A stretch of 64,000 nt of DNA, from contig CAZTAK010000001.1 in NCBI GenBank assembly GCA_964611585.1, positions 11,132-75,131 on the forward strand. The letters are read 5' to 3'. A program made the translations under genes and the position numbers. Position 1 is the stretch's first letter, and each line of letters opens with the position of its first letter. Shown here one piece after another: positions 60,519 to 64,000 of this stretch. Source of the DNA: an uncultured Alphaproteobacteria bacterium (GTDB taxonomy: Bacteria > Pseudomonadota > Alphaproteobacteria > SHVP01). Under the pieces are notes generated by a model, which had not been told where the DNA came from, made no database searches, and was given only the letters and a program-made list of their open reading frames with translations.

Positions 60519-62315
60519 TTGGCTTGCCGAACGATGACCTTCGATCAAACCGCAATATTCGTCATTCTTGCGCTCGCCCTCGCCGGATTCATCTGGGGGC
60601 GGTGGCGCTATGACGTCGTCGCCTTTGCGGCCCTGATCGCCGCGGTTCTGGTGGGGGTGGTGCCGTCGGGCGAGGCCTTTCTCGGTTTCGGCCATCCCGC
60701 CACAATCACCGTGATCGGTGTGCTGATCATGAGCCGGGCCCTGCTGAATTCAGGCGCGGTCGATCTTCTGGCCGACCGCCTGACCCCGGGGACCCGGACC
60801 CCGGCGACGCATATCGGCACCCTGATCGGGATTGGCGCGCCGTTGTCGGCGATCATGAACAACGTCGGGGCGCTGTCGCTGCTGATGCCGGTGGCGGTGC
60901 AGTCGGCGATCAAGGCCAAGCGGTCGCCTGCGGTCATCCTGATGCCGCTGTCGTTCGGAACCATCCTCGGCGGGCTGGTAACGCTCATCGGGACGCCGCC
61001 CAACATTATCGTCGCCACCTACCGTGGCCGGGTCGCGGATGCGCCGTTCGGCATGTTCGACTTTACGCCGGCCGGTGCGGCGGTGGCGGTGGCGGGCGGG
61101 CTGTTTGTGGCATTGATCGGCTGGCGGCTGATTCCGAAATCGCGCCGCGCCGCACCGCCGCCGGGCGAACTGTTCCACATCGAGGACTACGTTGCCGAGG
61201 CCAAGGTGCCCGCCGGGTCGCCCTCAATCGGCAAATCGTTGGGCGAAATCGACGATGACGCCCGCGAGCAGGACGTCGTTGTCATCGGCCTGATTCGGGA
61301 CCGCATGCGCATTTTCGCCGCCGCACGCCACCAGCACATTCAGGAAGGCGACATTGTGGTGCTCGAGGCGGCGGCCAAACGAATCGACAAGTTCGTCACC
61401 GAAAGCGGGTTGGAACTGGTCGGCACCGAAGAGGAAGCGACCGCGTTCCTGAAAGCCGAACACATGACCGTCGGCGAGGTGGTGGTTTCGCCGGGCGCCC
61501 GCATCGAAGGCCGCAACGCCCGGGACCTGCGTCTTGCGGGCCGTTATGGGGTCAACCTGCTGGCGATTTCGCGCCAGGGCCAGCCCATTACCGCCCGCCT
61601 CAATTCGGTTCGATTCCGGGCCGGCGATGTGCTCCTGTTTCAGGGCGAACCCGAGCGCCTCAATCAGGTGAACTCGGCACTGGGATTGCTGCCGCTGGCG
61701 GAGCGGTCGTTGCAGATCGGCCGCGCCCCGCAGGCGGGCCTGACGGTGGCGATCTTTGCCGCCGCCATTCTGGCCGCAACATTCGGGGTGATGTCATTGC
61801 AGATTGCCTTGGGCCTTTCGTCGATTGCGGTCGTGGTGCTGCGGATCGTTCCGCTGACGCAACTCTACGAGGCGATTGACTGGCCGGTAGTGGTTCTGCT
61901 GGGGGCGATGATGCCGATTGGCGAAGCGCTGGAAACCACCGGCGCCACCCAAATGATGGTGGGCGCGATCGGCGGCCTGTCGGAGGGGGTTTCGCCCCTG
62001 CTGATTCTCGCGCTCCTGTTGATCGTCACCATGACGCTTTCGGATGTGATGAACAATGCGGCGACAGCCGTGGTCGCGGCGCCCATTGCCTTCGGCGTCG
62101 CGCAATTGCTGGGACTCAACCCGGACGCCTTCCTGATGGCGGTTGCGATCGGCGCGAGTTGCGCGTTCCTGACCCCGATCGGCCATCAGAACAATGCGCT
62201 GATCCTCGGCCCCGGCGGCTATCATTTCGGCGACTACTGGCGCATGGGGCTGCCGCTGGAGGTGCTGATCGTGGTCGTCGCGGTGCCGATGATCGCCTGG
62301 GTGTTCCCGCTCTAG
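60519..62315 (+). CDS. SLC13/DASS-family anion permease with two internal TrkA-C domains
   Basis: Two membrane halves with SLC13-type hairpins (NNVGALSLLMP / NNAATAVVAAP) flank two TrkA_C-like regulatory domains. Confidence 0.8.
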   Translation: MACRTMTFDQTAIFVILALALAGFIWGRWRYDVVAFAALIAAVLVGVVPSGEAFLGFGHPATITVIGVLIMSRALLNSGAVDLLADRLTPGTRTPATHIGTLIGIGAPLSAIMNNVGALSLLMPVAVQSAIKAKRSPAVILMPLSFGTILGGLVTLIGTPPNIIVATYRGRVADAPFGMFDFTPAGAAVAVAGGLFVALIGWRLIPKSRRAAPPPGELFHIEDYVAEAKVPAGSPSIGKSLGEIDDDAREQDVVVIGLIRDRMRIFAAARHQHIQEGDIVVLEAAAKRIDKFVTESGLELVGTEEEATAFLKAEHMTVGEVVVSPGARIEGRNARDLRLAGRYGVNLLAISRQGQPITARLNSVRFRAGDVLLFQGEPERLNQVNSALGLLPLAERSLQIGRAPQAGLTVAIFAAAILAATFGVMSLQIALGLSSIAVVVLRIVPLTQLYEAIDWPVVVLLGAMMPIGEALETTGATQMMVGAIGGLSEGVSPLLILALLLIVTMTLSDVMNNAATAVVAAPIAFGVAQLLGLNPDAFLMAVAIGASCAFLTPIGHQNNALILGPGGYHFGDYWRMGLPLEVLIVVVAVPMIAWVFPL

Positions 62316-62348
62316 CCAGCGTCACCGCGGCGAAGACGACGCCCCCGG

Positions 62349-62975
62349 TCACAGATCGATAGTGCGGCGCGCCAGCGCCCGGTCCCATTTCGAATCGATT
62401 GCCGGGTCGAAAAGGAATTCGGCGTCCCCCGGCAGGACGAACCAGCCGCCTTGGTCCAGTTCGCGTTCGAGTTGGCCCGGCCCCCAGCCCGAAAACCCGA
62501 ACGCCAGCAGACGGTCCCGCGGCCCCTCGCCGCGAGCGATCGCTTCGAATATTTCGCGCCGCGAGGTCATGGAAACCGCCTCGCTCACCTCGACGGTCCC
62601 GTCCTGAATGTAGTCGGTCGAATGGATCACGAACGCCGCCTCCGGCTCGACCGGTCCGCCGTAGTGAACCCGAACGATTTCCCGGTTGTCGCCGGCATCG
62701 ATCCCGAGATTCCGCATCACCTCGGCGACGGGCCAGCGGCCGACCGAGCGGTTGATGACAATCCCCATCGCACCGCCCGCGTCATGGCGCACCATGTAAA
62801 TTATGGTGTGAAAAAAATTGGCGTCCCGCAGTTCGGGCTCCGCCACCAGAAAACGCCCGCGCAAACTCTCGGGTGCCTCCTGCGCAGGGGCGGGCTCCGG
62901 TGCCGACAGCAGGACGGCAAGGCCAAGACCGAGAACGGCGGCGAGACGACGCCATCGGATGCGCCCAGTGATCAT
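62349..62975 (-). CDS. YqgE/AlgH (UPF0301) family protein with signal peptide
   Basis: The product LRGRFLVAEPELRDANFFHTIIYMVRHDAGGAMGIVINR is characteristic of the family. Confidence 0.75.
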   Translation of the reverse strand: MITGRIRWRRLAAVLGLGLAVLLSAPEPAPAQEAPESLRGRFLVAEPELRDANFFHTIIYMVRHDAGGAMGIVINRSVGRWPVAEVMRNLGIDAGDNREIVRVHYGGPVEPEAAFVIHSTDYIQDGTVEVSEAVSMTSRREIFEAIARGEGPRDRLLAFGFSGWGPGQLERELDQGGWFVLPGDAEFLFDPAIDSKWDRALARRTIDL

Positions 62976-64000
62976 GGCACAGCGTTAGACCAGCCCCGGG
63001 ACCAGCACAAGGCGCACTGACGCGGTCCACCGGGCAAAAGCGGCGCAGCCCCTTCCAGACCCGCCAATCCGAGGCGGCGATACCGACAACCTGGCACCGC
63101 AGTCAGCGTTCCACCGGCCCAATCCACAACATGTTGGGTAGATATCCCGAGAGAACACAAAAATCGGTTGCAGGTCCGATTCGGGGCGGGTAGGATTCGT
63201 ACAAGCTGAACGCCAGGGCTGCACAGGTAATGGGACCCTGCGCACTGACCTCCCGCGAGAGGCACACCCTGACGTTCTGGAGCCGCTCAAGCCCCTGACA
63301 CGCGCAAGTGGACGGGGTTTTTCCGTTTCAGGGCCCCGCGGCGCCGTTGCCGGTACCGCACAACCCCTTGCGGGAGCCTGCCAAAGACCGCCCTCCCAAC
63401 CCGTGGCCGCAGTCGCCCGAAGACAACGCCGACCCAGACCCGGAAAGGTAGCCCGCCCGACCGCCTGCCGCCCGAACCCGGCCCCCGAAAGAGTCGGACC
63501 CCGGCACAGGCCCCGTTGCGTCCGCCCGGCTGGCGGCCGGACCTTCCCGAAGGAAGGGCCGAACCGGTCACCGAACCCGAAACCCTGCCCCGGCCCCAGC
63601 AACTGGCGCCCGAAGGCGTCCAAGACTGAAACCCGGACCCGGATCCCGGCCGACGGGCCCGACCGGCCAGCGTACGCTCCAAAGGAGGGACCTCCCCAGA
63701 AACGCACGACCAAGCGTTCGAAGCACCATCGCGGTGGAGACCCACCGGTCCCCGAACGAACATTCCACCTAGCAGCGAAGTCGTCCCCTCGGAAACCTCC
63801 CCGATCCGCGCGGCCGCCAAATTCCCCGAAAGAAACCCGCCGACCACTCCGAACCAAGGACCGTCACGCTCACGCGTGCATGGAAAGTGTGCAGAAGCGA
63901 AGCCGCGCTGGCAACGAAATTCGTCATTCTGGGTGAAAAAAACTGTGTAAAACCAACGGCTTATATCACATAACACAAACAATTTTTCCACAGCCTTGTA

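Follow-up and report, generated by a model that had tools for sequence, protein, structure and literature searches.

Large, intricately folded orphan RNAs are rare in bacteria, with OLE (RF01071), GOLLD (RF01998), ROOL (RF03087) and the raiA motif among the few, and any addition to them may turn out to have unusual biochemistry. Analysis of the window (the whole 64,000-nt stretch of DNA examined here) indicates that the minus strand of 63152-63957 probably encodes a transcribed, structured non-coding RNA of about 0.8 kb. If true, the locus adds such an RNA from an uncultured alphaproteobacterial lineage, with a clear domain plan, set positions at which expansion hairpins are inserted, and constant gene neighbours as candidate partners.

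Like OLE, GOLLD, ROOL and the raiA motif, the candidate is large (0.6-0.8 kb here) and has a multi-domain, heavily paired architecture with short invariant loops, lineage-variable insertions, a narrow phylogenetic range and apparently its own start and stop signals, which are predicted here. It differs from them in its host, an uncultured alphaproteobacterial lineage rather than Firmicutes or phages, in having no matches in phage or viral collections, and in being strongly G+U-rich and A-depleted; it is known here from sequence alone. It also differs in lacking any sequence or structure match to them. The original prediction had called for an Rfam covariance scan, and a cmscan of 62000-64000, 63140-64000 and two related loci (L007 and L012) against Rfam 15, whose families include OLE, GOLLD, ROOL, HEARO, raiA, 6S, RNase P, SRP, alpha_tmRNA and riboswitches, returned no known family for window or relative, even at E≤10. 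The only hits, all noise, fell far below the gathering thresholds (mir-936, 26 bits versus 110; CRISPR-DR30, 16 versus 50; PhotoRC-I, 12 versus 45).

Other searches were also negative. ARAGORN found no tRNA or tmRNA in the window, in L001 (a contig of the same organism), in L007 or in L012, and blastn against plasmids and phages gave no match. A tmRNA had been considered on the resemblance of GCUGCUAG to a tag end and was rejected, since there is no in-frame stop, no tRNA-like domain and no alpha_tmRNA match. Exact matches of two invariant 15/16-mers in viral contigs were likewise set aside as chance, the contigs being unrelated phage genomes with no similarity beyond the word and no covariance model match. 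In the literature, no RNA motif was linked to DUF179, and one ncRNA survey of 50 genomes had none linked to yqgE, algH or DUF179. The family is new to the catalogues searched, and its kind, the orphan large structured ncRNA, is already known.

The candidate RNA lies upstream of, and co-oriented with, a yqgE/algH-family gene. Beyond the window end the locus could be followed for 834 nt in L001, where all features lie on the minus strand.
62349-62975, minus strand: yqgE/algH-family gene (DUF179), with Pfam PF02622 on the called gene
past 64000 (in L001), minus strand: some 0.5 kb in which no gene is credible, a called 113-aa ORF looking spurious
past 64000 (in L001), minus strand: gene for a 75-aa two-helix membrane protein
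L001 1-57 (window about 64778-64834), minus strand: 3' part of tRNA-Leu(UAA), with variable arm, T-arm and a ...GCACCA end

The suggestion that an rRNA operon might lie downstream of 64000 did not hold, the gene-poor 0.5 kb, the membrane-protein gene and the tRNA-Leu fragment being found there instead. The contig end truncates this tRNA gene, which is why ARAGORN did not call it. The ends of L001 and L005 lie no more than about 30 nt apart at tRNA-Leu(UAA), which suggests a repeat or an assembly break there.

The same organism is present in six further assemblies at 99.5-100% identity, and a DNA pattern scan of metagenome contigs found only this organism and a strain 99.5-99.6% identical to it. 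One further lineage only was recovered, an alphaproteobacterial MAG species (L007, L012 and L017-L025) with YqgE 54-58% identical; the ten P0122 loci examined are one species, and each of the two lineages is represented by near-identical strains only. The order of small membrane protein, long gap with the RNA, and yqgE is common to the window organism and to L007, L012 and L017-L024, and a profile search with the small membrane protein (75-78 aa) recovered the same two lineages only. OLE RNA works with the membrane protein OapA, and the candidate RNA likewise lies near a small membrane-protein gene restricted to the same two lineages, a loose parallel that we take as a lead only. A YqgE protein search for more homologues found one other lineage only above 55% identity. 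The element was absent upstream of yqgE at nine other loci from eight other lineages (L008-L011, L013, L014 and L063-L067); the loci of P0003, P0004, P0080, P0009 and P0035 lack it.

Comparison of the window with L007 and L012 revealed invariant blocks of 12-21 nt, unchanged in strand and order. Shared with the relative are an AT-rich block, a 5' multibranch domain, the segment UUCGGGGGCCGG and a 3' domain. In the direction of the proposed transcript, the elements are as follows.
63930-64000, continuing about 12 nt past the window end, minus strand: AT-rich promoter/operator-like block, near-invariant against L007 and L012
63992-63984, minus strand: 9-mer TGTGGAAAA of the AT-rich block
63970-63960, minus strand: extended -10-like element TGTGATATAAG, with hexamer TATAAG
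63952-63944, minus strand: 9-mer TTTTACACA of the AT-rich block
63942-63936, minus strand: T7 run
63635-63957, minus strand: 5' domain, conserved against L007, with invariant stretches including GAGCGUGACGGU and UUCGCUGCUAGGUGGA
63957-63942, minus strand: small 5' hairpin of the 5' domain
63878-63865, minus strand: hairpin CACGC-GUGA-GCGUG of the 5' domain
63863-63847, minus strand: 5' strand of the long-range closing helix, pairing with 63490-63479
63845-63803, minus strand: hairpin of the 5' domain
63797-63747, minus strand: long hairpin whose apical 16 nt, UUCGCUGCUAGGUGGA (63779-63764), are invariant
63746-63635, minus strand: irregular hairpin of the 5' domain
63634-63491 and 63478-63382, minus strand: GC-rich hairpin expansion of the window lineage only, seen as gaps in the L007 and L012 alignments
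63490-63479, minus strand: conserved 3' strand of the long-range helix (...UUUCGGGGGCCGG...), interrupting the hairpin expansion
63190-63381, minus strand: 3' domain, 84% identical to L007 over 138 nt, including UGCCUCUCGCGGGAGG and AGGGUCCCAUUACCU
63317-63292, minus strand: hairpin with internal loop, part of the 3' domain
63290-63197, minus strand: three-way junction with invariant hairpin GCCUCUCGCGGGAGG
63238-63226, minus strand: invariant 9-nt loop within GGGUCCCAUUACC, part of the three-way junction
63182-63152, minus strand: terminator-like hairpin GAAUCGG-ACCUGCAA-CCGAUU followed by UUUUUGUGUU, the sole such site in 62300-64000

From these elements we propose a highly structured, G+U-rich and A-poor RNA of about 0.8 kb in the window and about 0.6 kb in the sole known relative. 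It would take its start signals from the AT-rich block, where TGTGATATAAG lies between the inverted TGTGGAAAA and TTTTACACA, and would run first through the 5' multibranch domain, closed by the predicted long-range helix, and then through the 3' domain, with its internal-loop hairpin, three-way junction and invariant loops. It would end at the hairpin and U-run of 63182-63152, about 185 nt ahead of the co-oriented yqgE.

The MFE of the 811-nt sequence was -411.5 kcal/mol (z -2.76) on the minus strand and -293.4 kcal/mol (z +1.76) on the plus strand, and single-sequence MFE z-scores for the 3' domain were -1.5 and +0.78, respectively. RNAalifold of the window with L007 on the minus strand gave 59 pairs in the 5' domain, 16 of them changed on both sides and still paired and none broken, and 40 in the 3' domain, with 10 one-sided G.U-compatible changes and none broken; at full length it gave 176 pairs, 27 compensatory on both sides and none broken, although these counts come from one pairwise comparison of two lineages, with structures predicted from the same two sequences, and so lean towards structure. 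When the 3' partners of the 5'-domain pairs were slid by 1-3 columns, 36-54% instead of 100% stayed paired and double changes fell from 16 to 0-5, and the same alignment on the plus strand yielded 29 pairs at -17.7 kcal/mol. Several window G-U pairs in the 3'-domain helices are A.C mismatches on the plus strand. Column-shuffled controls gave alifold z-scores of -4.52 (minus) versus -1.14 (plus) for the 5' domain and -4.26 versus -0.53 for the 3' domain. Structure that is compensated, strand-specific and beyond shuffled controls, which is expected of structured RNAs in general, was found on two independent sequences. We conclude that the alignment indicates a strand-specific conserved secondary structure with compensatory changes on the minus strand, as the original prediction anticipated in proposing a structured ncRNA or long leader read on this strand and conservation and covariation in relatives as a check.

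Polymorphisms among strains are few and gave a mixed outcome as a test of the structure. The 63283 G>A change converts a pair of the 3'-domain consensus helix to A.C, breaking it. In the single-sequence MFE fold, pairs are lost through the changes at 63452 and 63184 but kept at 63279 and 63308, where C-G becomes U-G. Such broken pairs would fit a region with no functional RNA, in which fast-evolving intergenic DNA or a decayed gene conserves only DNA signals (promoter or operator and DnaA-box-like sites) and the hairpins are a by-product of skewed, GC-rich composition. This reading, which we consider improbable, would also account for the best conservation falling in an AT-rich, DNA-motif-like segment, for the restriction to two lineages and for the lack of conservation in the motif-rich part. 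However, two further domains are conserved more than 600 nt from the AT-rich block, 27 double compensatory changes occur with no broken pair between the lineages, and the strand asymmetry of the alifold z-scores (-4.3 and -4.5 versus about -1) is not predicted by constraint at the DNA level.

The feature that first drew attention to the region, an enrichment of CCCGAA with CCGAA some 10 times in about 450 nt, proved real. The stretch 63380-63860 has 11 copies of CCGAA and 8 of CCCGAA, versus 2.7/kb and 0.81/kb across the whole window, and the densest 480-nt sliding windows for both motifs all fall within this region. The rest of the 64-kb window lies far below, with no other 480-nt stretch near these counts, showing that the enrichment is not typical of DNA in the window; no 480-nt stretch of the window has more than 5 copies of the reverse complement, TTCGG. 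From the region's own composition, 1.1 (order 0) or 3.8 (order 1) copies of CCGAA and 0.5 or 1.9 copies of CCCGAA are expected, and the observed counts were matched in 0-2 of 2000 simulations at these orders. Under an order-2, trinucleotide-preserving model, the CCGAA excess is weak (6.7 expected, with 11 or more in 129 of 2000 simulations) and that of CCCGAA is still unusual (8 of 2000).

The hairpins described with these motifs fared unevenly. CCTTCC-CGAA-GGAAGG (63541-63556) forms a perfect hairpin as claimed, whereas GGCGCC-CGAA-GGCGTC, also put forward as perfect, carries a G.T on the plus strand that becomes an A.C mismatch on the minus strand. Similarly, the minus-strand MFE fold bears out the claim that this strand presents the motif in UUCG tetraloops for 4 of the 11 UUCGG copies (loops at 63830, 63614, 63551 and 63421), three of these four predicted tetraloops being cUUCGg, but not for the other 7, which are buried within stems.

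Most of the CCCGAA/UUCGGG copies fall in the hairpin expansion, together with three predicted cUUCGg tetraloop hairpins (loops at 63614, 63551 and 63421), and the alignments indicate that the motif-rich part is largely a lineage-specific insertion and not conserved core. We propose that CCCGAA is enriched because this lineage has added some 250 nt of GC-rich hairpins to the core, several of them capped by very stable cUUCGg tetraloops; on the plus strand, UUCGGG reads as CCCGAA. The short segment 63490-63479 is conserved beyond the insertion, presumably because it pairs with 63863-63847. In placing lineage-specific GC-rich hairpins at fixed points of a core, the candidate resembles the cUUCGg-capped expansion segments of rRNA, RNase P RNA and other large RNAs, and differs from them in that its core is not rRNA, RNase P, tmRNA or SRP RNA by Rfam and ARAGORN. 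A repeat-rich region, another of the original suggestions, found no support. Tandem Repeats Finder detected only a trace in the insertion (23 nt, 2.7 copies), 63380-63700 had no significant match elsewhere in the 63 kb, and a covariance model of the 3' domain found no second copy in the window and none at eleven other yqgE loci. Both a dispersed repeat (REP, BIME or MITE) and a tandem array were rejected, there being no copies within the window and only that trace.

The region is non-coding, in agreement with the original reading of its ORFs as having poor third-position GC bias, and its long ORFs are artefacts of composition. Three of them, of 290, 234 and 177 aa, are open across the region. 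The plus-strand core is 43% C, 27% G, 23% A and 7.7% T, and all frames on both strands are open because stops need T (or A, for the other strand) and T is scarce. GC1/2/3 of the long ORFs is flat (0.63-0.69), versus 0.66-0.72/0.45-0.47/0.76-0.82 in three neighbouring real genes. The 290-aa ORF has no homologue but itself among 5.8 billion predicted proteins, and a search with it for mis-called ORFs over homologous RNAs also returned only itself. Mismatches between the window and L007 are spread equally over the three codon positions with no 3-periodicity, and each frame of the L007 5' domain is broken by 4 stops. A conserved coding frame in relatives, the outcome that would have spoken against the original prediction, was not found, the 290-aa frame not being kept in L007. 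A conserved frame, codon-position bias and homologues, the marks of a protein-coding gene, are all absent. It is accordingly hardly credible that the region encodes a low-complexity protein, whether a plus-strand product rich in Pro, Glu and Arg (with CCC-GAA read as Pro-Glu) or a minus-strand one rich in Gly and Arg (the 290-aa ORF). Several frames do hold long ORFs, one frame is common to 5 of the 8 CCCGAA copies and gene callers annotate the 290-aa product in L003, but open frames are predicted by a T content of 7.7% anyway, and flat GC1/2/3, the absence of homologues, the loss of the frame, the non-periodic substitutions and the stops in every L007 frame all argue against a protein.

Public gene calls over the non-coding stretch, all on the minus strand, comprise a 113-aa ORF (L001 447-788, window about 64047-64388), the 290-aa ORF (window 62985-63857) and a 312-aa product (L004, cut by the contig end; window 63287-63991). 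Having no Pfam match or homologues, these look spurious, and they carry a lesson for annotation, as at least the 290-aa ORF and the 312-aa product cut by a contig end are already in public protein sets as called genes.

The AT-rich segment noted at the end of the window is real; it is the best-conserved part of the whole region in the relative and lies at the 5' end of the proposed RNA. Its minus-strand layout is TGTGGAAAA - N13 - TGTGATATAAG - N7 - TTTTACACA - G - T7, in which TGTGATATAAG fits an extended -10 (TRTGnTATAAT) save for the last base. A promoter scan called no canonical σ70 promoter at the block because the -10-like hexamer ends in G. This base, 63960, is polymorphic among strains, changing TATAAG to TATAAA in L005, and the base after the hexamer, 63959, is C in the window and A in L003 and L004. 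In L007 the upstream 78-aa gene has a good terminator behind it, ahead of the conserved AT-rich block. In one strain of the window organism, an IS element with an rve integrase (L003 80-778) has its junction at about window 64075, some 60-70 nt upstream of the block, and separates the RNA from the upstream membrane-protein gene. From the L007 terminator and the L003 insertion we infer that transcription starts at the AT-rich block, which would be the promoter or start region of the minus-strand RNA.

The two 9-mers, TGTGGAAAA and TTTTACACA, are inverted copies of one another and match the DnaA-box consensus TTWTNCACA, which has 3 matches in 64.8 kb, two of them these 9-mers. Both are conserved in L007, which has a third copy. 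These sites raise the very slight chance that the block marks a replication origin, or a locus that titrates DnaA or is regulated by it, with the G-rich transcript serving an R-loop or as primer. Such a role would suit the concentration and conservation of the boxes, the AT-rich stretch adjoining the DnaA-box-like sites in L007 and the G-richness of the RNA-like strand. Nevertheless, there are only 2-3 boxes and no CtrA sites, no GC-skew switch occurs within the window (which ends at this locus), the few neighbouring genes examined include no dnaA, hemE or par, and the compensated RNA helices would be left unexplained.

At the other end of the proposed RNA, the terminator-like site at 63182-63152 was also called in L001. 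The hairpin and U-run form a modest terminator in the window and are not conserved in sequence in L007, whose equivalent is a weaker hairpin with a U-poor tail. The site is likely the 3' end of the RNA, or else may act as an attenuator ahead of yqgE, which starts about 185 nt past the hairpin. Because the L007 counterpart is weak, termination may be partial and read-through into yqgE is plausible. Between the window hairpin and yqgE, 63112-63088 (minus strand) reads GGAAC-N16-GGTT, which is not conserved in L007. The consensus of alphaproteobacterial general-stress (EcfG) promoters is GGAAC-N16/17-CGTT, from which we take this sequence to be one mismatch removed.

These features allow the possibility, to which we give less weight, that the same structured RNA is a cis-acting and very long 5' leader for yqgE, the 3' three-way junction serving as a riboswitch-like or protein-binding sensor and 63182-63152 as a conditional terminator that tunes transcription into the gene. 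As in riboswitch and attenuator leaders, a structured three-way junction and then a hairpin with a U-run lie upstream of a co-oriented gene; the RNA is on the same strand as yqgE and directly upstream of it in both lineages, as a 5'-UTR element should be, and the terminator-like hairpin directly follows the conserved 3' domain. A leader would also be consistent with the weak L007 terminator, at which read-through is likely, and with the lack of any canonical σ70 promoter called from the hairpin to yqgE. On the other hand, 0.6-0.8 kb far exceeds known riboswitch leaders, being 5-8 times the typical length, a second large conserved domain lies 400-600 nt upstream, and no Rfam riboswitch matched. 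We found no alternative anti-terminator pairing, and the stretch between hairpin and start codon is not conserved. Finally, the association with yqgE is seen in two lineages only, rather than recurring with the gene family across many, with nine other yqgE loci from eight other lineages being without the element.

Weighing these points, we lean, tentatively and at somewhat less than even confidence, towards a stand-alone ncRNA of scaffold or RNP type with partial read-through over a cis-acting yqgE leader. A more specific version, which on present evidence is unlikely, is that the stand-alone RNA belongs to a new class of bacterial ncRNA, large (0.6-0.8 kb), ornate and G.U-rich, and acts in trans as an RNP scaffold with its constant neighbours. 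Its partners would be the 75-78-aa membrane protein and/or the signal-peptide-bearing YqgE homologue, and its expression would be tied to the DnaA-box-like operator.

In L007, a cUUCGg hairpin and U6 run (GUUCCCUUCGGGGGGCCGGAUUUUUU, 1619-1644) lies between the 5' and 3' domains and is terminator-like; the place in the window aligned to it is without a U-run. In the L007 lineage, the 5' and 3' domains might be made as separable transcripts.

Over the stretch from the transporter gene (window 62006) up to and including yqgE, the window has a 99.3% match in a contig binned as Pirellulaceae (JASLRI010000917.1, L068). Similarity ends within a few bases of the yqgE start codon (L068 2085-2100 versus window 62972-62978). 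Beyond this junction, at which both sequences have a short ATCACT, the contig carries unrelated genes of methyltransferase and glycosyltransferase type. The contig is probably a chimeric assembly, the alternative being a real rearrangement that removed the RNA region.

In both lineages the YqgE/AlgH homologue itself (62349-62975, minus strand; L007 1951-2604) is extended at its N-terminus by a hydrophobic stretch resembling a signal peptide (MITGRIRWRRLAAVLGLGLAVLLSAPEPAPAQE...), and many YqgE homologues in the protein search are also 200-240 aa. This pattern suggests that exported forms may exist in a family usually annotated as a cytoplasmic 'putative transcriptional regulator'.
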